DNA from: an uncultured delta proteobacterium
GTDB taxonomy: Bacteria > Desulfobacterota > Binatia > Bin18
Length of the DNA stretch: 64,000 bases
Assembly: GCA_963733195.1 (NCBI GenBank)
Contig: CAVTCR010000012.1
Location: forward strand, 1-64,000
Reading direction: 5' to 3'
Below, in pieces: positions 12,668-37,582 of the stretch. Position numbers and translations under genes: made by a program. Each line of letters opens with the position of its first letter. Position 1 is the stretch's first letter. The notes under the pieces are model-generated. The model had not been told where the DNA came from, did no database searches, and was given only the letters and a program-made list of their open reading frames with translations.

Positions 12668-14071
12668 ATGCAATGGCAATCGAGGTATCGCGCATGGGGG
12701 GTCCAACTCGCCCTCACTGTTTTCGTGCTGCTACTCCTCTCGGGAGTTGTCAGCGTCGCAGCCGAAAATGAAGAATCTGGAGCTACGTTGAAATTAACTC
12801 TGGTCGAGTGCATAAAACGAGCAGTGGAGAATCATCCGTCAGTGCAGGAAGTGAAATGGGAGGTCGCTCTGCGCGAAAGCGATCTGCAGCAAGCGAAGGC
12901 GGGAGCTTACCCCACCGGCGAGTTCACCAGCATATTTGGCGCAGTCAACGATGCAAAAGGTAGCTTAGCGGGCAATCGACCAATCCGGACCGGTGGCATT
13001 GATGAGCTCGGTCCATTCATCCGCCTGGAAGGGCAATTCGTCTACCCTTTATTTACCTGGGGGAAAATTACCAATGGCATCACTGCCGCAACTAAAGGCG
13101 TCGAACAAGAAATTGCCAACGTTGCACAAAAGAAGGATGAAGCAGCTCGTGAGGTCAAAGAGTTTTACTACACCTTACAGTACACCCAACAAGTCAAATC
13201 CCTTTTGGGTGACGTCCGTGACGGGTTCCAGAAAGCAGTGACCACAACAGACGGGCTAATGAAAGAAAGTAAAGGAAAAATCTCTCAGCTTGATGTTCTT
13301 AACCTCAAGATTGGCTACGCTGGCGTTGCTAAGGAAGTGGGAAAACTGGACAACGGTATTGAACTGACCAAAGCGGCGTTGTTGCGGGTGATAGGGGAGC
13401 CACAAACAACCAATTTCATTCCGGCAGAACCGGGACTCACCCCACAATCTGCTCAACTTAAGGAGTTTGATTATTACGTGCAACGGTTATTCGCCAATCG
13501 GCCAGAGTGGCGTCGTTTACTTCTTGGTATCCAAGCGAAAGAGGCGGAACTGGCGTTGACCAGAAGCGATTACTTTCCTGCCTTCTTCCTGGCTGTCCCG
13601 ATTCGCTATGGCTATGCCCCTGGACGTTCACGGCAGACCAACCCATTTGCCTATGATGACTTCAACTTTGGTGCAGCTGGACCAGTCTTAGGGTTACGGT
13701 GGAATTTTGATATTAACGGCACTGCGGCCAAGGTCGCGCGTAGCGAAGCTGAGCTGATGAAGCTACAAACCCAGAAGAAAACCGCAGAGAACAGTTTTCC
13801 AGTCGAGGTCAAAGAAGCCTATCTCAACGTCCAAGAGGCTAAGGAACGGATAAAAATTACCGACGAAGGACGCAAAGCAGGTCGGGCACTCGTCGCCCTC
13901 TCTACCGCCAATTTTGAATTGGGCATTGGTGAACCACAAGATATTTTTCTTGGCCTGGGTAATTACACTCGTGCTGCTAATGATTATTATGAAGCAGTCA
14001 GGGACTACAATATCGCCTTAGCAAAGCTGAGCTTGGTAGTTGGCGAAGAGGTCTCAGACCTGCAGTACTAG
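12668..14071 (+). CDS. TolC-family outer-membrane channel
   Basis: Signal peptide, LTLVECIKRAVENHP, YPLFTWGK, NRPE, YFP, YNIALAKL; two OEP repeats. Confidence 0.85.
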   Translation: MQWQSRYRAWGVQLALTVFVLLLLSGVVSVAAENEESGATLKLTLVECIKRAVENHPSVQEVKWEVALRESDLQQAKAGAYPTGEFTSIFGAVNDAKGSLAGNRPIRTGGIDELGPFIRLEGQFVYPLFTWGKITNGITAATKGVEQEIANVAQKKDEAAREVKEFYYTLQYTQQVKSLLGDVRDGFQKAVTTTDGLMKESKGKISQLDVLNLKIGYAGVAKEVGKLDNGIELTKAALLRVIGEPQTTNFIPAEPGLTPQSAQLKEFDYYVQRLFANRPEWRRLLLGIQAKEAELALTRSDYFPAFFLAVPIRYGYAPGRSRQTNPFAYDDFNFGAAGPVLGLRWNFDINGTAAKVARSEAELMKLQTQKKTAENSFPVEVKEAYLNVQEAKERIKITDEGRKAGRALVALSTANFELGIGEPQDIFLGLGNYTRAANDYYEAVRDYNIALAKLSLVVGEEVSDLQY

Positions 14072-14233
14072 CGATTCCTAAAGGTAGATCAGGGTTAAGG
14101 GCAGTTCACATGTTCATCGTGAGAGGGCAACGCCGCGCCGTAAAATCTGCGGCAGCAAAACTACTCACCTACCCTCGTGTTTAGCTCCGAGAAGGTAACA
14201 TGGGCAATCTGCCTTCGAGTAGAGGAGAAAACT

Positions 14234-14830
14234 ATGAAAAAATGGATTCTCGCACTCACGCTTACGCTATTGACGTTCAGTCTTCCCCTTTTCAGTTGGG
14301 CTGATGGACCGACCTCTACGGTCCAGAAACTGATTGACTCGGTCCGGTCGTTTAAACCCGAGACCTCTTCATCTTCTACGCAAGATCGAGCCGAGAATGG
14401 TAAAGCCCTGAAAGTGGCCGAGGAAACCTTAGCGATTCAGGATCTCTCTAAGCGAATGCTTGGTGATCAGTGGGGAAAGCTGAATGCCAACGAACAAAAG
14501 AATTTCGCACAATTGTTGGTCCAGTTGTTCCAGAAAATCGCCTATCCTAAATCGGCTGAATTCTTTGGCGAACTCCAAATTGACTACACCGGAGAAAAAA
14601 TGAATGGTAGTGGCGCCGTCGTGGAAACCAAGGTCAGCCACCCCAAGGAAGGTCAAGTCGGCATCGATTACCAACTTCACCAGGTGAATGGCAAGTGGAT
14701 GATCGACGACGTCTTGCTTGACGGTGTCAGTTTAGTCACCAACGTCCAGAGTCAGATGCAACAAGTGATTGCCAAAGAGTCATATCAAGGATTGATCAAA
14801 CGCATGCGGGAGAAGCTTGCTGAAAGCTAG
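14234..14830 (+). CDS. HpnM/MlaC (Ttg2D)-family periplasmic lipid shuttle
   Basis: Signal peptide; LGDQW, IDYQL, WMIDDVLLDGVSLV...QM, GLIKRMREK. Confidence 0.85.
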   Translation: MKKWILALTLTLLTFSLPLFSWADGPTSTVQKLIDSVRSFKPETSSSSTQDRAENGKALKVAEETLAIQDLSKRMLGDQWGKLNANEQKNFAQLLVQLFQKIAYPKSAEFFGELQIDYTGEKMNGSGAVVETKVSHPKEGQVGIDYQLHQVNGKWMIDDVLLDGVSLVTNVQSQMQQVIAKESYQGLIKRMREKLAES

Positions 14831-14859
14831 TTTTTTGAGCGCAACAAATAGAGACATGC

Positions 14860-17721
14860 ATGGATTCCAAAGGGATTAAACAGACATTCATTACCAACGA
14901 ACAGCGACTCCTTCAGTTTCTTGCCCATCTCACCACTTCCTCCCCATGGACCATCCTGCTGTGCAGCCTTGTGCTTGCTACGGTAGCGGTGTTCTACACT
15001 GTTCACCACCTTGAATTCATCACCGGCCACAACGACTTGATCGCCTCAAACAAGCGCTATGTGCAGCTTGATGAGGAATATGCTCAGGAGTTCATGGGAA
15101 TCGACCAAGTCGTCGTAGTGGTCGAGCCGCGTGATGTTCAACAAGGCAAAGATTTCGTCACCAAGCTGGGCGAGATTCTGGAGCGTGACACAAAGCACGT
15201 CGCCGAAGTATTTTACCGTATTGATACTTCAACGTTAGAAGGCAAGAAGCTGTTGTATTTGTCCCCTGATGATCTTCGTGCGCTACGGGAGAATCTGGAA
15301 GAGTACCATACCCTTATTCATGATCTGACCACTGCTCCGGGTATCAACCCGCTGTTCCGCGCAATTAATCAACAAGTCAGCTCTGGCATGGTTTCGCACT
15401 TGGTAGTGAATCTCTTTGGTCTCGATTCTCCGGAAACCGAGGAGAGTAAGAGCAAGGAAGAGAAAAACCCTGTCCAAATTGGCTTTCTCAAAGAACTGTT
15501 GCAGGAACTTGATCGAACCCTCACAGACACTACCCATGGGTATCGTTCACCATGGGCCGAATTCTTTGGTGGAACGGAAGAGTGGTCAGACAACGGCTAT
15601 CTGGTCTCCGAGAACCGCAGGTTTGTCTTCTTGATGGTCGAGCCCAAGGATACAGAGGACGATGGGTTTAGCGAACGTCAAGCTTCGATTGCCGCGATTC
15701 GACGAGCCGTTGCCTCGCTTCGTCCGCAGTTTCTTGGCCTCACTGCCGGGGTCACGGGAACCAAAGCCCTCGACAGTGATGAGATGGTCAGTGTGCAAGC
15801 CGATGGTGGTGTTGCAACCGTGACCTGCTTTGTCGGTATTACACTTCTGTATTTCCTCTTTTTCCGTAAGATGCGTCACCCGCTGCTCATTGCATTGACG
15901 CTCGCTATCGGGTTGACGTGGACGATGGGTTTTATCTCGCTCGCAGTTGGTCACCTGACGGTGATCACCATGTTCGTTGGTCCTATGTTGCTTGGTTTAG
16001 CCGACGATTTTGGCGTGCATTTCATGACTCGCTATGAGGAGGAACGCACGCGTGGGCAAAGTCCGCAAGCGGCATTGACAGAAGTTTTTGCACATACAGT
16101 TCCAGGCATTACGGCTGGTGCAGTCACAACGGCGCTTGCATTTTTTGCAGTCATGCTCGCCGACTTCCGTGGCATCCAAGAACTAGGCTTGATCACCAGC
16201 GGAGGTCTGCTCCTCTATCTTGTTGCCACTGTCACTGTCTTGCCTGCGCTGGTTATTCTGGTTGAATCGTATCGTCCGTGGCATGGGGCTGAAGGACGAC
16301 ATACCTTCCTGGGCGGAGCATTTGCGAGACTGGGGTCGGTGTTCGCACAGCGCCATCCAGCACTTGTGTTACTCCTCGCAACAATCACAGTCTGTTCTCT
16401 TGCTGCGCTCCCAACTCTTTCGTTCGATTACAATTTACTGAATCTACAAGCGCGTGGCACCGAATCCGTCAAATGGGAAAAGCGAATTATTGAGAATTCA
16501 GAGCGGTCATCGTGGAACGCGTTAACTACGGCCTCAACTCCCGCGGAAGCGATGCGCAAGGCAGCAGCGTTTCGGCAGCTTTCTTCTGTCGAATCAGTGG
16601 AAAGTGTCGCATCGCTAATTCCCGAGCAACAAGAAGAACGACTCGCTCTGGTGCATGCACTCTCGCCAGCGTTCAGTAATTTGCCACCAGCGCTACCACC
16701 CACTGCACCAGTGGATGTTCGAGACTTGCAAGGAACGCTAGAAAAACTCAAACTCAAAATCCGCACTGACAACACCGAATGGGATCCACAAAGGAAGCCT
16801 GCCGAGCAAGAACTCGCTGAAACCCGACTTGCACTACTCTCCATAATCGAACGTCTGCAAACAATGCCGGAAGGCGAAGCGCAAGCCGCCTTGGTGCGCT
16901 TCCAACAGGCATTACTCCACGATTTCCAAGATAAGTGGAGTCTGTTGCGTAACAATCTCAATCCCTCTGGGCCAATATCCTTTGCTGACGTTCCGCCACA
17001 ATTGAAGAGCCGTTTCGTCAGTCGCGATGAAACAAAATTTCTCTTGCAAATCTATCCAAAGCACAACATTCGTGAACGGGAACAATTAGAAGAATTTATC
17101 TCGCAACTACGCCAGGTCGATCCAGATGTCACTGGGTCACCAGTGATCGGGTATGAAGCCATCGGTGCTATAAAGCAAGGCTATGTTGAAGGCGCAGTGT
17201 ATGCTTTTCTCGCGATCCTGATAGTGACCTTTTTTACCTTACGCCGGACCAGCGACACTTTGCTCGCAGTGCTCCCGCTGGTTCTCGGAGTCATTTGGAC
17301 CGCTGGGCTGATGTGGGTGTTCAATTTACAATTCAACTTGGCGAACCTGGTTGCCGTTCCGTTGATTATTGGCATCGGTGTAGAAAACGGCATTCATATC
17401 GTGCATCGCTTCCGCGAAGCTGGAGAAAGCGGACCAGAGTTGGTCGCAGGTAGTACCGGACAAGCAGTGGCCTTGTTCTCGCTGACGACTATGGTAGGGT
17501 TCGGCAGCCTCATGGTGGCTCGGTATTATGGCATCTTCAGTATGGGGCTGTTGTTAACCGTGGCGGTCGGAAGCGTACTGGTTGCCTCACTCGGAGTGCT
17601 TCCGATGCTGCTGACTCGCCCTGCGGCGCAGGACGCAGAAGTAGCACTGACAGAGTTAGTAGCAAAGAAAGAAAAACGGGTCCAAGAACAAGTCCGACGC
17701 CGTTCGGCGCGACGGCATTAA
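14860..17721 (+). CDS. hpnN: HpnN-like MMPL/RND hopanoid transporter
   Basis: 953 aa with two TM bundles; GLADDFGVHFMTRYEEE, FDYNLLNLQ, VTGSPV, GIGVENGIHIVHR; next to an HpnM-like gene. Confidence 0.8.
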   Translation: MDSKGIKQTFITNEQRLLQFLAHLTTSSPWTILLCSLVLATVAVFYTVHHLEFITGHNDLIASNKRYVQLDEEYAQEFMGIDQVVVVVEPRDVQQGKDFVTKLGEILERDTKHVAEVFYRIDTSTLEGKKLLYLSPDDLRALRENLEEYHTLIHDLTTAPGINPLFRAINQQVSSGMVSHLVVNLFGLDSPETEESKSKEEKNPVQIGFLKELLQELDRTLTDTTHGYRSPWAEFFGGTEEWSDNGYLVSENRRFVFLMVEPKDTEDDGFSERQASIAAIRRAVASLRPQFLGLTAGVTGTKALDSDEMVSVQADGGVATVTCFVGITLLYFLFFRKMRHPLLIALTLAIGLTWTMGFISLAVGHLTVITMFVGPMLLGLADDFGVHFMTRYEEERTRGQSPQAALTEVFAHTVPGITAGAVTTALAFFAVMLADFRGIQELGLITSGGLLLYLVATVTVLPALVILVESYRPWHGAEGRHTFLGGAFARLGSVFAQRHPALVLLLATITVCSLAALPTLSFDYNLLNLQARGTESVKWEKRIIENSERSSWNALTTASTPAEAMRKAAAFRQLSSVESVESVASLIPEQQEERLALVHALSPAFSNLPPALPPTAPVDVRDLQGTLEKLKLKIRTDNTEWDPQRKPAEQELAETRLALLSIIERLQTMPEGEAQAALVRFQQALLHDFQDKWSLLRNNLNPSGPISFADVPPQLKSRFVSRDETKFLLQIYPKHNIREREQLEEFISQLRQVDPDVTGSPVIGYEAIGAIKQGYVEGAVYAFLAILIVTFFTLRRTSDTLLAVLPLVLGVIWTAGLMWVFNLQFNLANLVAVPLIIGIGVENGIHIVHRFREAGESGPELVAGSTGQAVALFSLTTMVGFGSLMVARYYGIFSMGLLLTVAVGSVLVASLGVLPMLLTRPAAQDAEVALTELVAKKEKRVQEQVRRRSARRH

Positions 17722-17843: not shown

Positions 17844-18329
17844 ATGGTGACCGGTCCAGATTTTCTTCGATTGCTTCTTGATGCAGGGTTTGACTTCTTT
17901 ACCGGAGTTCCGTGCTCGTTAGCAAAAAGCTTGATCGCCACCTTGGAAGAGCGCGGTGGTTACATCCCTGAGACGCGGGAAGATGCAGCGGTCGGCCTTG
18001 CGGCTGGTGCCTATATGGCTGGGAAACAGCCAACGGTCATTATGCAAAACTCCGGCTTAGGAGTGTGTGTCAATGCGCTGGCCTCGTTGAGCCTCATGTA
18101 TAATTTCCCTTGCTTGCTGCTCATCACCTGGCGTGGGTATCAAGGGAAAGATGCGCCGGAACACTTAATTATGGGAGACATCTCTCCAACGTTACTTTCT
18201 ACTTTGAAGATTCCCCACCAAATGCTTAATGCCGACACCCTCAGAGAATCGATTGACTGGGCGGCAGAAACACTCAAGCACACAAGCAAACCCGTTGCCC
18301 TACTGCTTCCTCCTGGAGTCATGCAGTGA
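17844..18329 (+). CDS. Phosphonopyruvate/sulfopyruvate decarboxylase alpha subunit (ThDP Pyr domain)
   Basis: FFTGVPCS, REDAAVGLAAG, MQNSGLG, WRGYQGKDAPEH. Confidence 0.85.
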   Translation: MVTGPDFLRLLLDAGFDFFTGVPCSLAKSLIATLEERGGYIPETREDAAVGLAAGAYMAGKQPTVIMQNSGLGVCVNALASLSLMYNFPCLLLITWRGYQGKDAPEHLIMGDISPTLLSTLKIPHQMLNADTLRESIDWAAETLKHTSKPVALLLPPGVMQ

Positions 18330-18889
18330 AACTCGCTGAAGCCCTTGCTGTTGTGATCCCGTTACTGCGCGATGAAGTGGTTGTCCATGCCAACGGATTT
18401 ATCTCGCGCGAATCGTTCAACATCAGTGATCGATTAGGAAATTTTTACATGATCGGTTCAATGGGGTTGGCTTCGTCGATCGCGTTGGGAGTAGCGCTCA
18501 ATCGCCCTGACCGTCGCATTGTGGTCTTCGATGGTGACGGCAACGTCCTTATGAATATGGGCTCACTGGCGATGATCGCCGCAACACAACCGAAAAATCT
18601 TGTTCACTTTGTGTTTGACAATGAAGTCTACGGGTCAACGGGAAATCAGCGTACGGTGTCTGGTCAAGTGCCATTAGAAGAGATCGCCCGCGCCAGCGGC
18701 TACCAACGCGCGCAACGTGTAGACAATGAAGCGACACTCCGCACTGCGGCGCAGGAGTTTCTCGCCCAGCCCGGTCCGTCGTTCCTGCTCATTAAGATTG
18801 AACCCGACTACGAAGAGCACAAGATTGGTCGCATCACACATGAACCACCGCAAATAGCCGCGCGGTTTATGAAAGCACTTGGAAAATAG
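18326..18889 (+). CDS. Phosphonopyruvate/sulfopyruvate decarboxylase beta subunit (ThDP PP domain)
   Basis: NGFISRE, FYMIGSMGLASSIALG, DGDG...N ThDP motif, DNEVYGSTGNQ. Confidence 0.85.
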   Translation: MKLAEALAVVIPLLRDEVVVHANGFISRESFNISDRLGNFYMIGSMGLASSIALGVALNRPDRRIVVFDGDGNVLMNMGSLAMIAATQPKNLVHFVFDNEVYGSTGNQRTVSGQVPLEEIARASGYQRAQRVDNEATLRTAAQEFLAQPGPSFLLIKIEPDYEEHKIGRITHEPPQIAARFMKALGK

Positions 18890-19066: not shown

Positions 19067-20143
19067 ATGCGCCAGTATATTTTACTTAACCCCGGCCCAG
19101 TAAACGTCTCACCACGTGTGCAACAGGCATTGCTGCGTGGTGATCTATGCCATCGCGAAGAAGAATTTTCTGACCTCCTCGTCGCGATTCGCACGAAGTT
19201 GCTCCAGGCGTTTGCTCCTTCAGGATACACCGCGGTACCAGTCACCGGTTCTGGCACGCTCGCAGTTGAAGCAATGGTATCATCCGCATTTCCCGACGGA
19301 AAGAAACTCTTGGTGATCAACAATGGTGTCTATGGCGAACGCATGCTGCGCATGGCCGAAGCGCATCGGATTCCGACGGTCGAGGTACGTTACGAGTGGA
19401 CGCAACGGCCAGATCTCGGACAGATTGAGTCAACCCTGCGAGACGATCCTGCCATCCATGCGGTTGCCTTGGTGCATCACGAAACCACCACCGGGCTGTT
19501 GAATCTCGTCACCGAAGTTGGTGCAATCACTCGCCGTGCAGGGCGATGGCTATTGCTTGATGCAGTGAGTTCGCTCGCAGCTGAAGACCTCGATCTCGTT
19601 CGTGATGGTGTCGATCTCTGCGCCTGCACTGCCAACAAATGCATTCAAGGAATTCCTGGAGTTTCGTTTGTTCTGGTGCGTAACGAAGCGATGGCAGCGA
19701 TGCAACAGTATCCACGTCGCTCGTTGTACCTCCACTTGCCATTGCATTGGGAGGCACAAGAAAAGCGAAGCATTCCATTCACTCCGTCAGTGCAGACTTG
19801 GTACGCACTTGATGAAGCTCTCGACGAGTTGCTAGAAGAAACCGTTGCTAAGCGAGTACAACGCCACCATGCAGCTGCACAACTGTTGCGCGAAGGTTTT
19901 GCCCGACTTGGACTCAAAGCCCTTTTACCTGCTGCCCATCAGTCGAACACACTCACGTCCTTATTCCTTCCGGAAGGCATGACTTATCAGCACATTCACG
20001 ACGGCCTCAAGGACCGCGGCTTTGTCATCTACGAAGGGCAAGGCAAACTTCAGACTGGGATTTTCCGCGTCGCCAACATGGGGCATCTGACACTTGATGA
20101 TTTTCGTCGGTTTCTGGGAGCATTAGAAGAAGTGCTCGGGTAG
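19067..20143 (+). CDS. 2-aminoethylphosphonate aminotransferase (PhnW/AepZ-like, class V PLP)
   Basis: LLNPGPVN, DLCHREEEF, NGVYGERM, HHETTTG, DAVSS, ANKCIQGIPG, PFTP, FVIYEGQG. Confidence 0.85.
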   Translation: MRQYILLNPGPVNVSPRVQQALLRGDLCHREEEFSDLLVAIRTKLLQAFAPSGYTAVPVTGSGTLAVEAMVSSAFPDGKKLLVINNGVYGERMLRMAEAHRIPTVEVRYEWTQRPDLGQIESTLRDDPAIHAVALVHHETTTGLLNLVTEVGAITRRAGRWLLLDAVSSLAAEDLDLVRDGVDLCACTANKCIQGIPGVSFVLVRNEAMAAMQQYPRRSLYLHLPLHWEAQEKRSIPFTPSVQTWYALDEALDELLEETVAKRVQRHHAAAQLLREGFARLGLKALLPAAHQSNTLTSLFLPEGMTYQHIHDGLKDRGFVIYEGQGKLQTGIFRVANMGHLTLDDFRRFLGALEEVLG

Positions 20144-20222: not shown

Positions 20223-20375
20223 CGCCAAGGAAAAACACAGGAAGCTCACGAGATGTTAGTCGAGGTTTACGAGTGGTTCACCGAAGGGTTTGATACGGCG
20301 GACTTGAAAGATGCGAAGGTGTTGCTAAAGGCAATATCAAGTGAAAGAGAAATATGGATCAGTCTAGTCTGCTAA
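20223..20375 (+). pseudogene. Orphan C-terminal remnant of a STAND-ATPase/adenylate-cyclase TPR protein
   Basis: Translates to QGKTQEAHEMLVEVYEWFTEGFDTADLKDAKVLL; in-frame stop at 20214 and no credible 5' part. Confidence 0.7.
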
Positions 20376-20668
20376 AACGCGTCAAGCTTCTTCTTAAAGA
20401 TGTCTTCGGTGCCCGCCTCCAAGGAGTGATTCTCTACGGCTCCGAAGCACGAGGAGAGGCAACGGTAGACAGTGATATCGACATCTTGATCCTCCTGACC
20501 GGGCCGGTGGCGTTCGGGCGAGACTTGCGAACACTCATTCACGCCCTGTATTCCCTGGAATTAGAGCTTGAACGGGCAATCGATGCCACCCCTGTTGATA
20601 TGGATGTCTATAAGGCGGGAGAATTCGCGTTGTACCGTAATGTCCAGAGGGAAGGAATTGTTGCATGA
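20354..20668 (+). CDS. Minimal nucleotidyltransferase (MNT) antitoxin
   Basis: ILYGSEARGEATVDSDIDILI (GS...DxD). Confidence 0.88.
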   Translation: MDQSSLLKRVKLLLKDVFGARLQGVILYGSEARGEATVDSDIDILILLTGPVAFGRDLRTLIHALYSLELELERAIDATPVDMDVYKAGEFALYRNVQREGIVA

Positions 20669-21030
20669 ATGCCGACGCTACAGACCTCTGGGCGCGGGCG
20701 CTTCAAGCTCTGCAGACCACGATACTGCTTTTGTCGGCAGATCCAGATGCCGCTGCTTCTCGGGCCTACTACGCTGCTTTTTATGCGGTGTCTGCTTTAT
20801 TTGCCCTCCAAGGAAAGACTTTTGCCAAGCATGCCGCGGTAAGAACAGCCGTCCACCGCGATTTGGTCGAGCCGGGACTCTGGTCACGAAAGCAAGCGGA
20901 GGATTATTAGTTCCTGTTCAAACTCAGCAATACTGGGGACTATGGCGGAGGAATCCATGTGACTGACGACAATGCGACAGAAGCACTCGCGGCGACGCGT
21001 CGCATTCTTCAAGAACCGTTCATGATGCTG
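20665..21030 (+). pseudogene. HEPN-domain protein with an internal stop
   Basis: SRAYYAAFYAVSALF...KHAAV; TAG at 20908 followed in frame by FLFKLSNTGDYGG. Confidence 0.75.
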
Positions 21031-21386: not shown

Positions 21387-22829
21387 CTACGGCCGCACAG
21401 CTTCCCACACAGGTGGCAGTTGTGGTTGCTCGGCGTATGCTGTCCACCCTCCACCAAGCGCTCTGTAGAGTTGTACCACCGCAATCAGTTGATCGCGTTG
21501 GGTCTGCGCGAGAGCATTTTCTGCTGGAAAGAGTTGTTGCTGTGCCTCAATCACCTCAAAATAGCCGGCCAAGCCACCGCTGTAACGCAGCGTCGAGAGC
21601 CGTACTGACTCCTGTAGCGCTTTCACCGCTCGCTCTTGGTCTCTTCGTACTTCTGCCAGCTTTTGTTGGTTGATGAGGGCGTTTGATACTTCTTGTAGGG
21701 CAGTAATCACTGACTGTTCGTAGCGTAATTTGGTTTGCTCCCACTCAGTAACAGCAACTTGGTACAAACTTGATAATCGTCCACCTTGTATAATTGGGCC
21801 ACTCAATTGTGCTGCCACAGCCCAAATGGAGCTACTGTTGTTCACGACATTCTCGATGTCCGCACTTGCTCCCCCGAAAAGGCTTGTCAGACCAATACGT
21901 GGAAAGAAGTCCGCCTGCGCTACACCAATGCGAGCATTGGCAGCAATCAGTGTCTGTTCGGCTTGGAGAATATCAGGTCGGCGTTCTAATAGTTGGGATG
22001 GTAACCCAGACGGGGTGGCTGGTGGAAACATATGATCGGTCAGCATCACACCACGCGGAATCGGACCAGGGTTGCGCCCTAAAAGGACATTGATTTGGTT
22101 TTCCTTGGCAACAATAAACCGTTCCAGATTTGGAATCACCGCTGAAGTCGAAGCAAGCGCGGCTTCAGCCCGTGCAGTCTCAAGTTTCGACGCGACACCT
22201 AATTGGAATCGCCGAGAAAACAACTCCAACGTTTTTTGAAAAGATTCCGTCGTCCGTCGCGCGATCTCGAGTTCAAGATCGAGTTCCCGCAACTCAAAGT
22301 ATGCTTGAGCAACGTCGCTGACCAGCGAGAGGATAACACCGCGACGGAATTCTTCACTGGCAAGCAGTTCTGCTACTGCGGCATCAGTCGAATAACGGAT
22401 ACGTCCCCACAGATCGAGTTCCCATGCAAGGTTGAAGATGCCTCTGAAGGCATTATTCTCTTCTCCAACCGGAATCTGCACAGAAAGTTGCGATATATTG
22501 TGCGACCGCCCAATTCCTCCCTCATAGCCAATCTGCGGAAAGAAGTCTGCGCGGGCAACCCCGTAGAGCGCGCGAGACTGCTCAACCCGCGCTGCGGCGA
22601 TGCGCAGATCGTAATTGTTCTCCAATGCTTCATTGATCAATCCAGCCAGGGCTTCATCACGAAACACCTCCCACCAGGCAAGGTCAGCAAAGGAGATTGC
22701 CTCCGGCGTACCAATATAGCTGCGATAACTATCAGGGACATCTAGAGTCGGGCGTTGATACAATGGACCGAAGGTGCAGGACGTTAAGAGCGTCGTTGCC
22801 AATACAGAAATCACTACGAATGTCTTCAT
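21387..22829 (-). CDS. RND efflux outer-membrane lipoprotein (OprM/NodT family)
   Basis: Lipobox LTSC, WWEVFRD, WELDLWG, LLERRPDI, LYRALGGGW. Confidence 0.92.
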   Translation of the reverse strand: MKTFVVISVLATTLLTSCTFGPLYQRPTLDVPDSYRSYIGTPEAISFADLAWWEVFRDEALAGLINEALENNYDLRIAAARVEQSRALYGVARADFFPQIGYEGGIGRSHNISQLSVQIPVGEENNAFRGIFNLAWELDLWGRIRYSTDAAVAELLASEEFRRGVILSLVSDVAQAYFELRELDLELEIARRTTESFQKTLELFSRRFQLGVASKLETARAEAALASTSAVIPNLERFIVAKENQINVLLGRNPGPIPRGVMLTDHMFPPATPSGLPSQLLERRPDILQAEQTLIAANARIGVAQADFFPRIGLTSLFGGASADIENVVNNSSSIWAVAAQLSGPIIQGGRLSSLYQVAVTEWEQTKLRYEQSVITALQEVSNALINQQKLAEVRRDQERAVKALQESVRLSTLRYSGGLAGYFEVIEAQQQLFPAENALAQTQRDQLIAVVQLYRALGGGWTAYAEQPQLPPVWEAVRP

Positions 22830-22831
22830 CG

Positions 22832-27515: not shown

Positions 27516-28259
27516 ATGAAAGCGATCATTCTCGCTGCCGGGGTCGGCAAACGGTTTAAGGAAGTCACGGACCATCGCCCTAAGTGCCTGATTGATATTC
27601 AAGGTAAAACGCTCCTTGAACGGACACTCGCAGCTCTCGGAGCAGCGGGAGTTTCGCAGGCGGTCGTGGTGATTGGCTATCGTGGCGAGATGATCAAGCA
27701 GCAGATTGGTTCGACCTGTGGCAGGGTCCAGGTGAAATATGTCCTCAATCCACAGTATGAGAAAGGGGCGATTCTGTCGTTGCTCAGTGCCCGCGAAGAA
27801 TTTGACGACGACATTCTCATCATGGATGCCGATGTCCTCTTTCCCATTGCGATGATTGACCGATTGATTCACTCACCCCATGCAAATTGTTTCCTGCTCG
27901 ACGGCAGTGCCAAAAACACTGGTGAAGAACAGATGCTGCTCACGCGTGACGGGCGCGTACTGAATATCGTCCGTGGCGGATCGGGAAACTTCGACGTGAT
28001 CGGTGAATCTGTGGGCTTTCTCAAAGTCTCTCGCAGTGATGCTCCTCTGTTGCGCTCGATTCTCGAAAATCTTGTTGCGCAAGGTCGTGACACCATCGAA
28101 CATGAAGAAGCATATCCCGTATTTCTCGCCCAACGTGTCGTCGGCTTCGAGCGGGTGGACGACTTACCGTGGACTGAGATCGATTTTCCTGAAGACCTGC
28201 AAAGAGCGGAACAGGAAGTGTTGCCACGGATTGTCGCAATAGATCAGACGAAGGATTAA
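27516..28259 (+). CDS. Phosphocholine/phosphonate cytidylyltransferase family (LicC/PntC-like)
   Basis: ILAAGVGKR, PKCL, MDADV, GEEQM, GESVGFLK, WTEIDFPEDL. Confidence 0.8.
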   Translation: MKAIILAAGVGKRFKEVTDHRPKCLIDIQGKTLLERTLAALGAAGVSQAVVVIGYRGEMIKQQIGSTCGRVQVKYVLNPQYEKGAILSLLSAREEFDDDILIMDADVLFPIAMIDRLIHSPHANCFLLDGSAKNTGEEQMLLTRDGRVLNIVRGGSGNFDVIGESVGFLKVSRSDAPLLRSILENLVAQGRDTIEHEEAYPVFLAQRVVGFERVDDLPWTEIDFPEDLQRAEQEVLPRIVAIDQTKD

Positions 28260-29036: not shown

Positions 29037-30770
29037 ATGTTCCCACCTTTACTCACCCCACTGAATCGCCTATCGCCGTTGATTCTTGCAGCGTTACTCT
29101 TCGTTCTTTCCTTTGCGGCCTTTTCCTGGCGGCTGGGTGAAGGACCGATTTATCGCACGATGGAAGGCCGTGAAGCAATGGTGATGCAAGAAATTGCCAA
29201 TACCGACAACTGGATCTTACCGTTGCGTAATGGAGAGACGATTCCTTCAAAGCCACCATTTTTTCATTGGTGTGGAGTGTTGGTTGCGCGACTCACCGGC
29301 GGTGTCTCGCCGTGGAGTGTGCGATTTCCTAATGCGTTTTTCTCAGCACTCAGCATCGCGCTCACCTGTTTGCTAGGATGCCGCCTCTCAGGTCGTGAAG
29401 TAGGCGTGCTTGCTGCCTTACTGCTCTTTACTACTCCAGCAGTCGTTGAAATGGCCCGTGAGGGATGGGTTGATCCAGCACTGTCGTTTTTTGTCCTGAC
29501 CGCGCTCACGAGCTTTACCTTCATGTACGAAAACGAGCAATGGCGCGGATGGCAAATCTGGGTGTTCTACCTTTCCCTCGCCGGTGCAGTACTCAGCAAA
29601 GGTCCGATCGGCTACATTCTTCCGCTTGTTGTGATTGTGGCTTATCTCGCCATTCAGCAACAACTCTCGCGGCTGCGCGCGCTGATATTTCTTCCTGGGC
29701 TCCTCATCGCGATCGGCGTGCCTTTGGTCTGGTATCTCTTAGCATTTTCACAACAAGGGTGGACATTTGTTCACAAACAGATTTGGCAGGAAAACCTGGT
29801 CCGTTTCACTGCGGGTTCTGGCAAGCGTATCCCTTCGGCGACATTTTTCTTCCTACCGTTCTTTGTCGAAGGCTTCCCGTGGAGTCTCTTGTTCTGCCTC
29901 GGTCTCTGGCGTCTTTCTCAACACGCTCCAGTACGAGACCACGGCGTCTTTCCCTTGGTGTGGTTGTTTTCGATCATGATGTTCTTCGCCATCGCCGCCG
30001 GCAAGCGGAGCATCTATCTCCTGCCGATTTATCCAGCGATGGCATTGTTTGCGGTCGAATGGGGATGGTTAACAGTGCCGCATGTATCTCAGCCACTACC
30101 CACGTTACTGCGCGTGCCGCTTCGTCTCCTCGCATGCGTCGTTAGTGGACTGGCAATTTTCGCTGCGTGGTCTGTCGCATTGGGATATTTGACTCTCAAT
30201 ACCCCGTGGATCGATACGCTGATTGGGGAAGACAAATGGAGCAACATTGCACTCTACATTCGCTTCTTTGCCGAACAGCCAGTGTATGGCACAGTGGTAT
30301 TCTCTGTTTTGTGTACTGGCTTAGCCTGGACCGTTTTTCTTGGAACCGCAGGTCGCTGGCGTAGCGCGTTGTGGAGCCTTCTTTTTGTGCTGATCGTTTC
30401 AACTGTTGGCATCTATCCATTCACGCGTGCCTATGCCAAAGAGTTCAAATCGTTCACCGGCTTTGCGACGGCAATCAAAGAGGTAGTCCCGCTCGACGCA
30501 TCATTGCGCTTCTATACACCCCTCCCCTATTCATCTGAATTCGACGAATTCTCTCAGGTCTATTTCTATCTCGGTCGTCACGTGCCGTTAGCCCCTTGTG
30601 CGGAACAGCCAGACTTACGTCGTTGTGAGCCTGGATATTATCTCTTACGCTTTCCTCATTGGCAGAAAGTGAAAGAGTCGGCTCCGGCACAGCTACTTCT
30701 CGATAGTCGCATGTCAGCCGGTCCTGACGCTGAGGCACGCCTAGCACTGATCCAACGCCTTCCCTACTAG
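29037..30770 (+). CDS. ArnT/PMT-family (GT-C) polyprenyl-phosphosugar glycosyltransferase
   Basis: MEGRE, WILPLRNG...SKPPFFHW, LSKGPIG, FPWS, KRSIYLLPIYPA; many TMs. Confidence 0.85.
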   Translation: MFPPLLTPLNRLSPLILAALLFVLSFAAFSWRLGEGPIYRTMEGREAMVMQEIANTDNWILPLRNGETIPSKPPFFHWCGVLVARLTGGVSPWSVRFPNAFFSALSIALTCLLGCRLSGREVGVLAALLLFTTPAVVEMAREGWVDPALSFFVLTALTSFTFMYENEQWRGWQIWVFYLSLAGAVLSKGPIGYILPLVVIVAYLAIQQQLSRLRALIFLPGLLIAIGVPLVWYLLAFSQQGWTFVHKQIWQENLVRFTAGSGKRIPSATFFFLPFFVEGFPWSLLFCLGLWRLSQHAPVRDHGVFPLVWLFSIMMFFAIAAGKRSIYLLPIYPAMALFAVEWGWLTVPHVSQPLPTLLRVPLRLLACVVSGLAIFAAWSVALGYLTLNTPWIDTLIGEDKWSNIALYIRFFAEQPVYGTVVFSVLCTGLAWTVFLGTAGRWRSALWSLLFVLIVSTVGIYPFTRAYAKEFKSFTGFATAIKEVVPLDASLRFYTPLPYSSEFDEFSQVYFYLGRHVPLAPCAEQPDLRRCEPGYYLLRFPHWQKVKESAPAQLLLDSRMSAGPDAEARLALIQRLPY

Positions 30771-30797: not shown

Positions 30798-31625
30798 TTG
30801 CCACTGTTCAGGAGAAGTAGAGTGTCGAAGAACTTTGAGCAAGTCGCGGTTACTGTCAGTAAAGACAGGCAGGATGAGGCCAGCGCTCCCCCGCGTCATC
30901 CACCGCACCCTCCTGATGCATCACCTGTGGTGATTTGGTTACGGCGCTACCGTCGCTATCTGCCTATCCCACTGATTCTTGTAACTGTCTTATGGCTTCG
31001 CCCAACCGTCCCATTTGGTAGCCCTTTTTTTGACACCGCAAGTGATATTCTCGGTGTCGGCATCTGTGCGCTCGGCCAGTGGTTACGCATGTGGGCGTGG
31101 GGAAGTAATGCCACCGTCGGGAAATGGGGAGTGCGAGATCGGGGACCATATCAGTTGATGCGCCATCCACTCTACGCAGGGAACTTTCTTATTGTCGTGG
31201 GTCTTGTCGTGATTTTCCACAATCCGTGGGCCTACCCGCTACTGCTGCTCCCGTTTGCGTACCTGTACCACACAATAACCAATATGGAAGAACAACGTCT
31301 GCGCCGGCGGTTCAGTGACGATTACCATGAGTATCGTAAGGATGAAGCCCCACGGTTTCTTCCAGCGTTGGGCAACTTCGGTGCGGCCCTCAACACTACG
31401 CGCCCCTTTAGCTGGGGACTTGCGTGGAGGAAAGAGAGCGAATCGTGCTGTGGCTGGCTGGCTGGTGTTGTCATACTGCAAGTGTATGAAGGAGTACTCG
31501 CGCGTGGCTGGACAGCAAACTGGCCGCACACACAGCGTTGGTTAGTAGTGCTGGGGTTTCTTGGTATTCTCGCACTCGTGTTGCACATTCGCAAACAGAC
31601 ACTGCCTCTGTCACCAAGTCGCTAA
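30798..31625 (+). CDS. Isoprenylcysteine carboxylmethyltransferase/PEMT-family membrane methyltransferase
   Basis: LRMWAWG, GPYQLMRHPLYAGN, EEQRLRRRF...YHEY...PRFLP. Confidence 0.8.
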   Translation: MPLFRRSRVSKNFEQVAVTVSKDRQDEASAPPRHPPHPPDASPVVIWLRRYRRYLPIPLILVTVLWLRPTVPFGSPFFDTASDILGVGICALGQWLRMWAWGSNATVGKWGVRDRGPYQLMRHPLYAGNFLIVVGLVVIFHNPWAYPLLLLPFAYLYHTITNMEEQRLRRRFSDDYHEYRKDEAPRFLPALGNFGAALNTTRPFSWGLAWRKESESCCGWLAGVVILQVYEGVLARGWTANWPHTQRWLVVLGFLGILALVLHIRKQTLPLSPSR

Positions 31626-31663
31626 ACAAGAAAATAAAACGTTCCTTTCGTTTCAGATTGAAG

Positions 31664-32575
31664 ATGTCGGCTATAACTCCCCACCGTTATCTGATCGTTA
31701 ATGGCGACGATTTCGGTCTCTCTCCTCAGGTGAATGCTGGGATCGTTCACGCACATCAGCACGGCATTCTGACTAACACGAGTTTGATGGTGTCCGGCCC
31801 AGCATGGAAAGATGCCATCGCACGTGCCAAAGATATTCCAAGTTTAAGTGTCGGATTACACCTCACGCTTGTGCAAGGCCGAGCGACATTACCTCCGCAT
31901 TTCACATTTGCACTGACTGACTTCGGCGGGAATTTTCTTGATAACCCTATGCATGCCGGGTTGCGCTATTTTTTCCTGCCACGTGCACGTGAGCAGATCC
32001 GGGATGAATGCCGAGCACAAATTGAGAAGTTTCTCGCCACCGGACTCCATTTGGGACATATTGATGGCCATCTCAACATTCACATGCACCCCACCGTCCT
32101 GGATATCCTGATTCCACTGTTGCTGGAATACAACATTCCTGCCATGCGAGTTTCGCATGAACCCCTCGCACTCAGCCTCGCGCTTGATGCTCGCTCCGGG
32201 ATGCGAAAGCGGTGGGAATCGTTAATTTTTACTCGTCTTGCGCTGCGGGCGAAGAAAAAATTGCACGCTGCGAGAATTGCTTTTCCTTCTGTGCTTTTTG
32301 GCCTACACCAAAGCGGAGAGATCACCGAGAGTTATCTCCTCCGCCTTATTCCTCAGCTGACAAGCGGAGTAACGGAGATCTATTGTCATCCTGCTTTCCT
32401 TCCGTGCCTAGAAGTCCAACGCTGGACGCCTACCTACCGTCGCGATGTTGAACTTGACGCGTTGACGCGACGGTCAATCCGTAACGCCCTTGAAGAGCGT
32501 GAAGTGAAGCTCATCAGTTATCGAGAGTTGCCACTCGTATCCGCCAATGAACGTCATGAGGCGTTGAGAGTATAG
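31664..32575 (+). CDS. hpnK: Hopanoid biosynthesis deacetylase HpnK (YdjC/ChbG family)
   Basis: LIVNGDDFG, SLMV, GLHLTLVQG, AGLRYFF, HIDGHLNIHMHP, EIYCHP. Confidence 0.85.
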   Translation: MSAITPHRYLIVNGDDFGLSPQVNAGIVHAHQHGILTNTSLMVSGPAWKDAIARAKDIPSLSVGLHLTLVQGRATLPPHFTFALTDFGGNFLDNPMHAGLRYFFLPRAREQIRDECRAQIEKFLATGLHLGHIDGHLNIHMHPTVLDILIPLLLEYNIPAMRVSHEPLALSLALDARSGMRKRWESLIFTRLALRAKKKLHAARIAFPSVLFGLHQSGEITESYLLRLIPQLTSGVTEIYCHPAFLPCLEVQRWTPTYRRDVELDALTRRSIRNALEEREVKLISYRELPLVSANERHEALRV

Positions 32576-34859: not shown

Positions 34860-36047
34860 TCACAGCGAGGCCGAATGCTGTGGCGACACGGAGGCGGAAG
34901 ACAATTCTCCCAGGCGGATTATTTTTCCATTACGCTGCACGCGAAAGGTATGCTCTCTCCACTGGACAGTGTTCCCCCACAAGCTCGCACCCCAGATGAA
35001 AAAAGAGAACAGATCAGTGAACGGCACCAGCCACAGCGCCTTGAGGGTGAGGAACGATCGTAAGAAGATACCATTCACGACACTGACAGAAAGCAAACGA
35101 AAAAAGAACGTGCTCCACGAAAGCAGCTGGATCAATGGTGATGCGCCATACAGCAGCCAGCCGAGCATCGCCCAGACGGTACCAAATGTTACTATCGTAC
35201 CAATGTGACCACTGGGGCGACAATTGCGTTGGGTTCGAGCCCATCGGAGTTGATGCTGAAATAACTCACGTACTGAAGCCACTCCAGGGTTGGTTTCAAC
35301 TACATGCGGCACAATCCGTACGTCATACCCAGCTTTGCTCACGAGGTATCCAAGGTAATAATCGTCAGCAAGATAGTCGGCAATTGCTGGAAACCCACCA
35401 ATCGCCTCGACACAGTGGCGCTTCACGGCCATTGTTGCACCAAACGCGTAGGTGGTTTTCTCGACTTGGCTCGCCACTATCACTAGTGGTGAAAAAGATG
35501 TATTGATGATCAGCGATTCGAATAACGTCGGGAGTGACGTTGCGGCCCCGCCTCGATACAGACATGTGACGATACCAACCTGCACATCAGTAAGCGGAGG
35601 AATGATAGCGCGGAGATGCCCAGGCTCTACTCGCACATCTCCATCGCTGATGACAAAAAGGTCGTATGACGCTACGGCAGCCAAGCGATGCAGCGTATCA
35701 ACCTTCGCGTTACTCCCAAGCGGTTCCGGGTTAACGACAAGCATAATATCGTGCGATGGAAAATCTCGCTGCAGACGTTCGACCACCGCAACTGCCGGGT
35801 CAGACGGATCATGCACTCCGCACAGGAGTTGATAGACTGGGTAGTCGAGGCGACAAAAACTGGCGAGATTGTCGTAGAGGTCGGCTGAAGCTCCCTTGAG
35901 GGGTTTGAAGAGAGACACTGGGGGAAGCGCGTCAATAATTACTGGACGAAAGCGAAAAAGCTTCCAGGCGGCATATAGCGTAAAGAGTGAATACCCACAC
36001 GCAATGAGAAGAAGAAAAGAGAGAAAAAAGGAACCATCAGTGATCAT
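34860..36047 (-). CDS. hpnI: Bacteriohopanetetrol glucosamine glycosyltransferase HpnI (GT21)
   Basis: PPVSLFKPLKG, NLASFCRLDYP, GSNAKV, ISDGDV, FGATMA, LADDY, HQLRWART. Confidence 0.9.
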   Translation of the reverse strand: MITDGSFFLSFLLLIACGYSLFTLYAAWKLFRFRPVIIDALPPVSLFKPLKGASADLYDNLASFCRLDYPVYQLLCGVHDPSDPAVAVVERLQRDFPSHDIMLVVNPEPLGSNAKVDTLHRLAAVASYDLFVISDGDVRVEPGHLRAIIPPLTDVQVGIVTCLYRGGAATSLPTLFESLIINTSFSPLVIVASQVEKTTYAFGATMAVKRHCVEAIGGFPAIADYLADDYYLGYLVSKAGYDVRIVPHVVETNPGVASVRELFQHQLRWARTQRNCRPSGHIGTIVTFGTVWAMLGWLLYGASPLIQLLSWSTFFFRLLSVSVVNGIFLRSFLTLKALWLVPFTDLFSFFIWGASLWGNTVQWREHTFRVQRNGKIIRLGELSSASVSPQHSASL

Positions 36048-36067
36048 GGCATGAAGGAAACACACCT

Positions 36068-36091
36068 AGGGGCACGGTTCGCCGTGCCCCT
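36068..36091. repeat. REP-like palindrome
   Basis: AGGGGCACGG TTCG CCGTGCCCCT. Confidence 0.6.
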
Positions 36092-36123
36092 CCATACAAT
36101 CAACCACTTTTCGTCACGAACCC

Positions 36124-37582
36124 TCATGCCGCTGAAGAAGAAGCCACCTGCGGTTTTGCTGCAACGACCTCGCGACGTTTGCGCATCGTGCGGAAGAAGT
36201 CTTTGCCTTCTTGCCACATGCGTTTGCGTTCATCCGAATGTAGGGCCATCTTTTTGAGCGATTTGAAAATATAACGCGGTCGTAAGTAATACGACTTGTA
36301 GAACTTCTCGACTGCCGTATAGATCTCATCACCAGACAAGCCTGGATAGTTAATCACACACCGTTGATAGCCGGTCTCATCAACCATGTCCTCGGGTTTG
36401 ATGTAGCCATGCTCAATTGCGTAGTCGTAAAAAGCCGTCCCTGGGTACGGAGAGGCCAAAGACACCTGGATCGTCTCAGGGTTCATCTCTTTGGCAAAGC
36501 GCATCGTCTGTTGAATGGTTTCGCGCGTCTCTCCTGGTAAGCCGAGAATGAAGGTACCATGAATCAGAATACCCAACTTGTGACAATCTTGGGTAAACCG
36601 ACGAGCAGACTCAAGCGCAACACCTTTCTTAATGTTCTTCAAGATTTCCGCATTCCCTGATTCGTAGCCAATGACGAACAGACGTAGTCCACCGTCTTTC
36701 ATAATTTTGAGCGTCTCGTAATCAACATTTGCTCGTGAATTGGTTGACCAGCATAAGCCGAGCGGCTTCAATCGCTGAGCAATCTCACGGGCACGATTAC
36801 GATCAGCCGTGAAGGTATCATCATCAAAGAAGATCTCTTTCATACCGGGAAAGAGCCGTTTCATCTCTTTGACTTCTTCGATTACGTTGTTCACCGATCG
36901 CGTACGATATGAATGACCAGTCGTCACTTGTGGCCATAGGCAAAAAGTACACCGAGCAGGGCAGCCACGACCAGTGTAGAGGGAGACGTACGGGTACTGG
37001 CAATACGGACTGTTGTATTTGCGAAAGTCGAGATCGCGATCGTAGATCTGTGTGACGAACGGGAAGCTTATCCAAGTCCTCGCTCAGCAGCGGCGCACGG
37101 TCAAGATTGTGGTGAATCTTACCATCTTTCTGATAGCTAATGCCTTGAATTTTCGCCCAATCCCATCCTTCGGCTACTTCCTTCATTGAAAAGTCGAACT
37201 CTTTTCGTGCCGCGATATCGATCGCTGGCGAAGCCTTCAGGGTTTGGTCGGGTATGGCAGTCGCGTGACCACCAACAAAAGCAATAACACAATTGGGGTT
37301 TTCCGCCTTGATCATCTCCGCTGTGCGTACATCCATCTTGAACGACGGCGTACTAGTGTGGAGTACGACGAAATCATATTCCTTGGCGATGGCAACTGTT
37401 TGTACTTGGTTGAGTTTCTCAGGCGGCGCATCAAGTACTCGGCTGTCTTTAATCATCCCGGCTGGATAACACAGCCACGTCGGATACCAGAACGACCACA
37501 CTTCACGCGTGGCTTGATAACGAGACCCCGCACCCCCGTCGAAATTCTCATATGCGGGAGGGTTTAAGAACAACGTCCGCAT
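36124..37582 (-). CDS. hpnJ: Hopanoid biosynthesis radical SAM protein HpnJ, one frameshift near 37060
   Basis: MRTLFLNPP...FDGGAGSRYQATREVWSFWYPTWL, GRGCPARCTFCLWPQ (CxxxCxxC), FFDDDTFT, IHGTFILGLPGET. Confidence 0.93.

Follow-up and report, generated by a model that had tools for sequence, protein, structure and literature searches.

Positions 12,620 to 37,582 of contig CAVTCR010000012.1, from the metagenome-assembled genome (MAG) GCA_963733195.1 of an uncultured bacterium of the class Binatia, hold a cluster in which genes for the tailoring and export of hopanoids enclose genes that would make 2-aminoethylphosphonate (AEP) and activate it as a cytidine monophosphate ester (CMP-AEP). The window analysed here is the stretch of 64,000 nucleotides at the start of this contig, C12 of 87, in a MAG of 6.9 Mb that is 93% complete. 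Its proteins were scored with Pfam and NCBIfam models, to which the curated cut-offs were applied (Table 1). A preliminary description, made from the sequence alone, had named an hpnM-like gene, hpnN, a split thiamine diphosphate (ThDP) decarboxylase, a PhnW-like aminotransferase, a cytidylyltransferase, an ArnT-like glycosyltransferase, a membrane methyltransferase, hpnK and a convergent hpnJ-hpnI pair, and all of these were recovered at or near the places it gave. The first gene of the range, which it had left unnamed, codes for a TolC-like protein.

Hopanoids are major membrane lipids of bacteria and also geological biomarkers. In Burkholderia and Rhodopseudomonas the enzymes HpnI, HpnK and HpnJ lead to bacteriohopanetetrol (BHT) glucosamine and the BHT cyclitol ether, with HpnN as transporter. 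The cluster resembles this pathway in that HpnI and HpnK exceed their cut-offs, HpnJ is intact in relatives, and HpnN-like and HpnM-like genes are adjacent; it differs in that its HpnN and HpnM stay below the curated cut-offs. A second HpnN model, NF052374, gives 357.9 bits against a cut-off of 1100, yet HpnN models remain the top-scoring ones for this protein, and its orthologues in relatives are 54–66% identical and occupy the same position. The TolC-like gene has a 72% identical counterpart, likewise in the same position, in one relative (L059), and in other genera (L040, L047) an MlaA lipoprotein stands in its place. We know of no described hpn cluster with phosphonate genes inside the operon.

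How stable is this union of genes? The arrangement was followed in 20-kb stretches around the decarboxylase genes of 20 relatives by mapping the window proteins onto each, with open reading frames (ORFs) in high-GC loci called by GC3 weighting together with tblastn. The genes hpnM, hpnN, decA and decB (the decarboxylase subunits) and aepZ (the aminotransferase) are contiguous and co-directional in all 14 same-family loci. The gene for HpnK comes after the cytidylyltransferase in 13/14, and hpnI and hpnJ are convergent in 11/13. From hpnN through hpnK, one locus (L047) has only overlaps or gaps of at most 46 bases, a spacing such as would be seen in one operon. Outside the family, hpnK, hpnI or hpnJ falls within the same 20-kb locus in four of the five loci from other Binatia families, and in family f8 hpnK stands immediately behind the cytidylyltransferase.

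The same picture emerges at the level of the class, for which decarboxylase and HpnK searches of 121 Binatia genomes were compared by hand. The decarboxylase is present in 42 of them (f1 14/14, f7 3/3, f8 10/14, f10 12/14, f11 1/13, f12 1/5, none in the others). HpnK was found in 39/42 genomes with the decarboxylase vs 42/79 without it. In 32 of the 42, from families f1, f7, f8 and f10, the two genes share a contig at a distance of 2.4 to 13.4 kb, that is, within 15 kb, and their order differs between families. The remaining genomes include three with the genes on separate contigs of fragmented assemblies and three in which 21.7 kb, 1.4 Mb or a whole contig lies between them. The linkage to hpn genes, which the preliminary description had proposed to check, is thus real and conserved: the arrangement is kept across a bacterial class far beyond chance, and in Binatia the cassette is held beside the HpnI/HpnK/HpnJ branch through several rearrangements. 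Family-level gene identities, conserved order and co-occurrence are all direct observations.

Table 1. Features of the cluster in window coordinates, with strand and model scores
Feature	Position	Strand	Scores and remarks
TolC-like outer-membrane efflux protein	12620..14071	+	Pfam OEP 117.7 bits; first gene of the hpnM-hpnN operon
MlaC-fold periplasmic lipid-binding protein, HpnM-like	14177..14830	+	Pfam MlaC 87.9 bits; TIGR03481 59.4 bits vs cut-off 160
HpnN-like RND (HAE3) lipid transporter	14860..17721	+	TIGR03480 590.4 bits vs cut-off 751.85; top of 9 models
ThDP decarboxylase alpha (Ppd/ComD type)	17844..18329	+	TIGR03297 Ppd 133.8 vs ComD 128.9 bits, both below cut-off
ThDP decarboxylase beta (Ppd/ComE type)	18326..18889	+	ComE 186 vs Ppd 185 bits, both below cut-off
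AEP aminotransferase PhnW/AepZ	19067..20143	+	TIGR03301 367.7 bits, above cut-off 360.8
MntA-like nucleotidyltransferase and small ORF	20354..20966	+	NTP_transf_2 35.2 bits; MntA 34.7 bits vs cut-off 60
RND efflux operon: OEP, AcrB (5 ORFs), adaptor (2 ORFs)	21387..27234	-	Pfam OEP, ACR_tran, HlyD
PntC-like (LicC-family) cytidylyltransferase, proposed CMP-AEP synthase	27516..28259	+	NTP_transf_3 64.2 bits
ArnT-like GT-C membrane glycosyltransferase	29037..30770	+	PMT 59.5, PMT_2 56.9 bits; ArnT NF009784 91.8 bits vs cut-off 567
ICMT/PEMT-family membrane methyltransferase	30798..31625	+	PEMT 36.5, ICMT 28.4 bits; LmtA 55.3 bits vs cut-off 325
HpnK, BHT-N-acetylglucosamine deacetylase family (YdjC)	31538..32575	+	TIGR03473 307.1 bits, above cut-off 232.6; genome-search match 31685-32530
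HpnI, BHT glucosamine glycosyltransferase	34860..36065	-	TIGR03472 357.5 bits, above cut-off 310
HpnJ, B12/radical-SAM, cyclitol-ether formation, two frames	36124..37582	-	TIGR03471 382.4 (C-terminal) and 255.9 bits (N-terminal), cut-off 577.6

The decarboxylase genes overlap by 4 bases, and the two-gene form was found in every relative examined, the beta-subunit gene being present in 35/36 same-family genomes. Both subunits find their best solved match in RhiEF (PDB 9iz3_A, RhiE, E 1.4e-32 for alpha; 9iz3_B, RhiF, E 1e-33 for beta). Since the split recurs in all relatives and the best structural match is itself a split phosphonopyruvate decarboxylase (Ppd), it is real and no frameshift. A 2025 review presents RhiEF as a verified heteromeric Ppd that is homologous to the sulfopyruvate decarboxylase ComDE (PMC12141560). 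The enzyme of the window is likewise a two-subunit ThDP decarboxylase, and the motifs GVPCS and WRG..GKDAPEH, quoted in the preliminary description, are present and align to RhiE. It differs from RhiEF in scoring equally on the models for ComDE, to which no structure among its PDB matches belongs. NCBIfam is therefore unable to separate Ppd from ComDE here, and the assignment as Ppd rests on context.

AepZ lies above the AEP-specific equivalog cut-off of TIGR03301. The cytidylyltransferase, found immediately after aepZ in 13/14 same-family loci, has its best PDB match over residues 2–242 in the PntC-AEPT protein of T. denticola (6pd1, E 6.3e-15; LicC, 7.1e-10) and retains the GxGxR...PK signature in the form AAGVGKRF...RPK. 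Its likeness to the PntC described by Rice et al. 2019 (PMC6697681) thus spans the whole length, includes the signature and extends to a location beside an AEP transaminase. It differs in that the similarity is low and the enzyme of the window is not fused to the transaminase; its substrate is predicted. Taken together, the genes fit the route put forward in the preliminary description, from phosphonopyruvate through phosphonoacetaldehyde and AEP to CMP-AEP.

A route of this kind calls for a first enzyme, a phosphoenolpyruvate (PEP) mutase, and the preliminary description had suggested searching the source genome for it and for several hopanoid and transfer genes. Part of that list was found: shc (793 bits, on contig C19 beside hpnD and dxr), hpnH (385 bits) and a CDP-alcohol phosphotransferase are present, and neither a canonical pepM nor LicD was found. 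A search of this genome (93% complete) gave no HpnG either, probably because the assembly is incomplete, since a divergent HpnG-like gene (99–138 bits vs a cut-off of 187) occurs in 37/41 genomes of the family. The best PEP mutase candidate, on contig C62, is a protein of 571 amino acids that joins a PepM-like domain to a C-terminal NTP_transf_3 domain. This fusion is carried by 38/41 same-family genomes (274–296 bits) and is encoded directly upstream of decA-decB in 5/5 loci of other Binatia families.

The association reaches beyond Binatia. A scan of species genomes with an alignment of the orthologues confirmed 421 PepM-like loci, the best 80 of which are from Binatia and Nitrospirota. Of the 50 more distant loci, 31 contain a decarboxylase gene. 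Where at least 5 kb lie upstream, a block of decA, decB, aepZ and a nucleotidyltransferase gene runs divergently from the fusion gene in 24/33. Since the fusion neighbours decA-decB in Binatia and the cassette in Nitrospirota, we read it as the first enzyme of the pathway. NCBI names the family only as 'isocitrate lyase/phosphoenolpyruvate mutase family protein'. A further gene travels with it: a 321-residue soluble protein of the terpene cyclase/mutase family is encoded after the PepM-like gene in 26 of the 27 close loci that extend far enough to contain it (in the source genome C62:69953-70915; L009 11954-12919). A Nitrospiria cassette contains a gene that shares 55% identity with it (L112 1845-2831), and two Nitrospirota loci as well as L053 have such a gene within the cassette. 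As a side observation, a protein of 326 amino acids that matches the PepM-like domain at 73% identity (P0072) is recorded under the name of a fungus, Aspergillus violaceofuscus; this is probably assembly contamination, or transfer.

Is the PepM-like enzyme a mutase? Several findings speak against it, or against a phosphonate route altogether. The PepM-like domain reaches 279.8–282.3 bits, under the TIGR02320 cut-off of 319.55, and in place of the EDKX5NS motif it has EDNIFPKRCS, with N for K and C for N. The canonical motif is absent from all six-frame ORFs longer than 200 amino acids in the genome (regular-expression search), and across 41 genomes of the family, many assembled as one contig, no PepM rises above the cut-off of the TIGR02320 hidden Markov model. 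A maximum-likelihood tree, quick and unrooted, of the 133 rows whose alignments are long places the protein in a nine-row Cys subclade within a 45-row group (SH-aLRT 93). Almost all of the non-canonical motifs fall in this group, three lyase-like QCG/QCA rows among them, and 79/80 canonical rows fall outside it. This placement makes the enzyme a sister lineage of the canonical mutases, not one nested among them. The fused nucleotidyltransferase domain, moreover, is without GxGxR (AAGFEENLLPL) in all six aligned orthologues (L009 10032-11747, residues ~312-335); by its sequence it may be degenerate, and catalytically dead or regulatory. Lastly, the decarboxylase scores amount to a tie, with 133.8/185 bits for Ppd vs 128.9/186 bits for ComDE (alpha/beta), all below cut-off (ComD 147.95, ComE 221.5).

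The variant EDNxFPKRCS is invariant in six orthologues and kept in 119/120 close homologues. Structure-based alignment places it opposite EDKRFPKVNS (5unc) and EDKLFPKTNS (Mytilus 1m1b) of PEP mutases and EDKTFPKDTS of phosphonopyruvate hydrolase. What we take to be the other catalytic positions of Mytilus PEPM are retained, namely the loop Asp, the DxD, a Glu, the Lys of FPK, and a later Arg and His. Among the 150 best representatives of clusters at 50% identity, EDK..NS occurs in 86, EDN..CS in 23 and EDN..NS in 15, the rest having other motifs.

These findings bear directly on a reading in which the enzyme is no PEP mutase and the head group no phosphonate, being instead a sulfonate, made through sulfoacetaldehyde to taurine, or phosphoethanolamine derived from a phosphorylated 2-oxo acid. 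The changed motif with its lyase-like KRC, the position outside the canonical PepM groups and the parity of the ComD/ComE models with Ppd would all suit it. We nevertheless consider it improbable: AepZ exceeds an AEP-specific cut-off, the PepM-like gene is tied to the decarboxylase genes in two phyla, and the remaining active-site positions of PEP mutase are kept. For a sulfonate there is the further difficulty that two nucleotidyltransferases and a CDP-alcohol phosphotransferase would, judging from the chemistry of these families, need a phosphorus nucleophile, which favours phosphonate. The sulfonate alternative that the preliminary description had kept in play is also weakened by the search for ComA, for which no PF02679 match was found in the 93%-complete MAG.

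Published surveys would have passed such an enzyme over. Rice et al. 2019 report a nucleotidyltransferase fusion for ~60% of motif-bearing Ppm proteins; among 905 fused proteins only 22 lacked the motif, and these were discarded (PMC6697681). Li and Horsman 2022 also filter by EDKX5NS (PMC8942020). As EDNxFPKRCS replaces that motif, the PepM-like enzyme is excluded by the filter as these two papers describe it. A lake metagenome study lists KEGG-called pepM in Nitrospirota (PMC10734540).

Once CMP-AEP is made, to which lipid would it go? Nitrospirota cassettes go on to encode a CDP-alcohol phosphotransferase of 450–496 amino acids and an HpnL-like LPG_synthase_TM protein, and the two occur in 26/50 and 22/50 distant loci, respectively. 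The source genome encodes on contig C3 a CDP-alcohol phosphotransferase of 422 amino acids with an intact DxxDGxxARx8Gx3Dx3D motif, adjoined by an HpnL-like gene (TIGR03476 179.5 bits vs a cut-off of 195.65). In several genomes of the family an HpnL-like gene also follows hpnJ. Among solved structures the transferase comes closest to the archaeal AF2299 and to the IPCT-DIPPS and PIP synthases, which use inositol phosphate; CPT1 and CEPT1, which use diacylglycerol, match weakly (E 6e-4 and worse). As a weak pointer from sequence, these relatives would suit a cyclitol or polyol acceptor.

The most serious competitor of a hopanoid acceptor is an ordinary AEP glycerophosphonolipid, in which CMP-AEP and diacylglycerol would yield an analogue of phosphatidylethanolamine, and the link to hpn genes would reflect shared envelope regulation and export through HpnN and MlaC. 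It draws on a known type of cluster, 'Group 1' or 'Burkholderiales_CDP-OH' (Li and Horsman 2022, PMC8942020, also citing Yu et al. 2013), whose layout the genes described here share and whose members are predicted makers of glycerophosphonolipids. Both have a Ppm-NTP_transf_3 fusion, Ppd, an AEP transaminase, a second, stand-alone PntC and a CDP-alcohol phosphotransferase, and the product there is, by that published account, likewise uncharacterised. Compared with the published clusters, the genes described here are distinguished by EDNxFPKRCS, a split decarboxylase and no alpha-ketoglutarate oxygenase in the window. In addition, the Binatia module is embedded between hpnN and hpnK, with the genes spread over three contigs in the source genome.

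Further points weigh on the same side. In Nitrospirota the cassette is complete with no hpn neighbours, as seen from the decA-decB-aepZ-nucleotidyltransferase block and the transferase counts given above. Any hpn gene at all was found in 3/50 distant loci, among them L098 and L124, which are Binatia-type records. Of five Nitrospirota genomes tested, one has HpnK, which is missing from the other four. As Nitrospirota cassettes lie mostly away from hpn genes, the cassette as such is independent of the HpnI/HpnK/HpnJ branch. The presence of shc is probably common in these groups with or without the cassette. In the source genome itself, the transferase and the HpnL-like gene stand on a separate contig with no further hpn genes nearby. 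The class-wide counts, too, were drawn from related genomes that share ancestry and so overstate independence. To our knowledge, no phosphono-hopanoid is known.

The glycerophosphonolipid explains less well why the hpnK/hpnI/hpnJ linkage survives rearrangements in four Binatia families (32/42 within 15 kb), why hpnK follows directly behind the cytidylyltransferase in f8, why a terpene-cyclase-family protein travels with the cassette, and why the transferase is nearest to AF2299, IPCT-DIPPS and PIP synthases and only weakly related to CPT1/CEPT1. One Nitrospiria genome, in addition, has hpnI and hpnK, both over their cut-offs, ~5 kb beyond the cassette, and shc is present in all five Nitrospirota genomes tested. 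On this balance we rate the glycerophosphonolipid as possible though rather unlikely. Placement of AEP on a hopanoid in preference to diacylglycerol can be proposed tentatively, at slightly less than an even chance, with the mostly unlinked cassettes of Nitrospirota as a point against it.

Links between phosphonates and terpenes have been suggested before. In Nitrosococcus, genes for a squalene synthase and a cyclase in gene cluster family (GCF) 731 are said to 'hint at a possible phosphonoterpene' (PMC8942020), the source cited for it being an antiSMASH 'phosphonate-terpene' call (PMC7285500), and a survey of Acetobacteraceae proposes 'an undiscovered terpene-phosphonate' (PMC8776678). Going by their published description, these clusters resemble ours in having AEP-type phosphonate genes beside squalene or hopene genes; they differ in being linked to squalene synthase and cyclase and not to hpnN, hpnK, hpnI or hpnJ. 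The mutases in these papers were found by homology, and of the three only PMC8942020 states the EDKX5NS filter. A literature search with subscription journals and supplements outside its scope returned no publication that connects the cassette with hpnN/K/I/J, none that remarks on the altered motif and none on a phosphono-hopanoid. 'Phosphonate-terpene' clusters as such are already in print, though never characterised.

Two genes between the cytidylyltransferase and hpnK open another possibility: the ArnT-like GT-C enzyme could attach AEP or some other group to lipid A or to a surface glycan, and the LmtA-like one could methylate it, with the hopanoid genes as bystanders. Both do resemble modifiers of lipid A phosphates (ArnT 91.8 bits, LmtA 55.3 bits), and their location within the cluster would fit. 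The scores, however, are far below the cut-offs of 567 and 325, and the glycosyltransferase classes only as generic GT-C/PMT_2. The two genes occur together between the nucleotidyltransferase gene and hpnK in 6/13 same-family loci and are missing from the other 7/13, whose clusters are otherwise complete. A GT-C gene is also found in L053, and both genes are absent from the Nitrospirota loci. GT-C enzymes as a family take lipid-linked and not CMP-linked donors, and LicD was not found in the genome. All this makes modification of lipid A or a glycan very unlikely. We see the pair as optional extras; the ICMT/PEMT-like enzyme could, as a conjecture, N- or O-methylate the head group. The spacer before the GT-C gene (28260-29036) measures 778 bases here vs ~24 in L040. 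Two short ORFs overlap within it and by eye look like a broken Phd/YefM-type antitoxin, and one contig of a relative has five 1-base deletions in it.

The block between aepZ and the cytidylyltransferase had been described as an inserted toxin-antitoxin (TA) and RND unit. Its RND operon is present, and it is lineage-specific, given that aepZ and the cytidylyltransferase adjoin in most relatives and the block is missing in 13/14 same-family loci. The TA part rests on an MntA-like match well below its cut-off, and the partner ORF has no family match in the NCBIfam scan; the two are specific to this genome. In a genome of the same genus (G002) the MntA-like pair was not seen and an OEP gene begins ~150 bases after aepZ; this genome shares the OEP-AcrB genes at the gap, and G011 has a different RND pump there. 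RND operons lie inside the Binatia cluster in two genera. In Nitrospirota, a TetR-adaptor-AcrB operon is found directly downstream of the PepM-like gene in L093, L111 and L117 (about 11.8–17 kb), and 19/50 distant loci have such an efflux operon. From this recurrence beside the cassette in other lineages, the 'inserted' pump may belong to the system.

The breaks in AcrB (five ORFs), the adaptor (two) and hpnJ (two) are most likely 1-base consensus errors. In relatives hpnJ is a single ORF of ~490 amino acids; here homology of the N-terminal piece stops at residue 175, at about base 37057, and this one frame break leaves HpnJ as two pieces below the cut-off. When the window was compared with sequencing runs, the best run held at most 0.18 of the sampled words, and the short contigs recovered come from relatives 92–99% alike. 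One short-read contig of a relative in run X1 is one base short at 37060, in hpnJ, and contigs from two runs are one base short at 26422, the break in the adaptor. These contigs are consistent with consensus errors and show that intact frames exist in relatives, the same frame in the strain of the window being unproven. A sediment metatranscriptome (RNA library) contains seven contigs that match the GT-C gene, hpnI and hpnJ, five of them at 99% or more (window 30337-30555, 34883-35180, 36130-36716 and 37255-37391); they are a weak hint at expression in a near-identical strain, and DNA carry-over is also possible.

The surroundings of the cluster were examined as well. Just upstream of hpnM-hpnN (7291-12491) are a thiolase-like gene, a ChsH2-type OB-fold/zinc-ribbon gene, PHP_C and two MaoC-type hydratase genes, a set reminiscent of steroid side-chain degradation, and genome G017 has the same set upstream of hpnM-hpnN (L040 1515-4890). 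The thiolase-like gene (7291-8187) codes for 298 amino acids here vs 383 in L040, and G+C is 64–70% across the first 8 kb of the window vs ~44–54% elsewhere in it. The short gene suggests that the G+C junction near 7300 interrupts it, and this junction could have arisen by chimeric joining during assembly or by a recent insertion. Downstream (39267-59000) follow ordinary nitrogen genes: P-II, an ammonium transporter, an NtrC-type two-component pair, an NMT1-type ABC set, a NirB-like nitrite reductase and a molybdopterin oxidoreductase.

Can the parts be assembled into one pathway? In the scheme that we favour, the PepM-like/nucleotidyltransferase fusion would convert PEP to phosphonopyruvate, and the two-subunit decarboxylase would turn this into phosphonoacetaldehyde, drawing the unfavourable mutase step forward. 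AepZ would transaminate the aldehyde to AEP, and the PntC-like cytidylyltransferase would activate it to CMP-AEP. The CDP-alcohol phosphotransferase on C3 would then pass the phosphonyl-AEP group to the hydroxyl of a membrane lipid. The HpnL-like flippase-type protein would flip this lipid, and the HpnN-like pump, the MlaC/HpnM-like carrier and an MlaA or TolC-like partner in the outer membrane would carry it outward. The acceptor we favour is an extended hopanoid, that is, BHT or its glucosamine or cyclitol head group formed by HpnI, HpnK and HpnJ. What the scheme infers is all of its substrates, the lipid that accepts AEP, and that the variant enzyme works as a mutase.

The individual parts of this scheme differ in their standing. 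Production of CMP-AEP by the module, with a membrane lipid as its destination, is probable. A hopanoid as the lipid in question is a tentative proposal that falls a little short of an even bet. The full combination, in which the Asn/Cys-variant PepM clade is a working C–P-forming mutase and Binatia also esterify AEP via CMP-AEP onto BHT or aminocyclitol, is accordingly bolder, and we consider it rather doubtful as a whole. As a pathway the module represents a variant form of a phosphonolipid cluster type that is known, though uncharacterised in its own right, and its product is predicted. Two things are new: the operonic union, across Binatia, of a phosphonate module and genes that tailor and export hopanoids, and a non-canonical mutase-like enzyme common to Binatia and Nitrospirota.

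Both would matter beyond this locus. If a phosphono-hopanoid is indeed made, it would be a new class of lipid and a new phosphorus sink in soils. If the variant enzyme is a true mutase, a clade abundant in Binatia and in the nitrifiers of Nitrospirota has been screened out by motif-based surveys, counts of phosphonate production are too low for soil and for nitrifying communities, and the 'defining' EDKX5NS motif would need revision. And if it is not a mutase, the cassette hides new chemistry.

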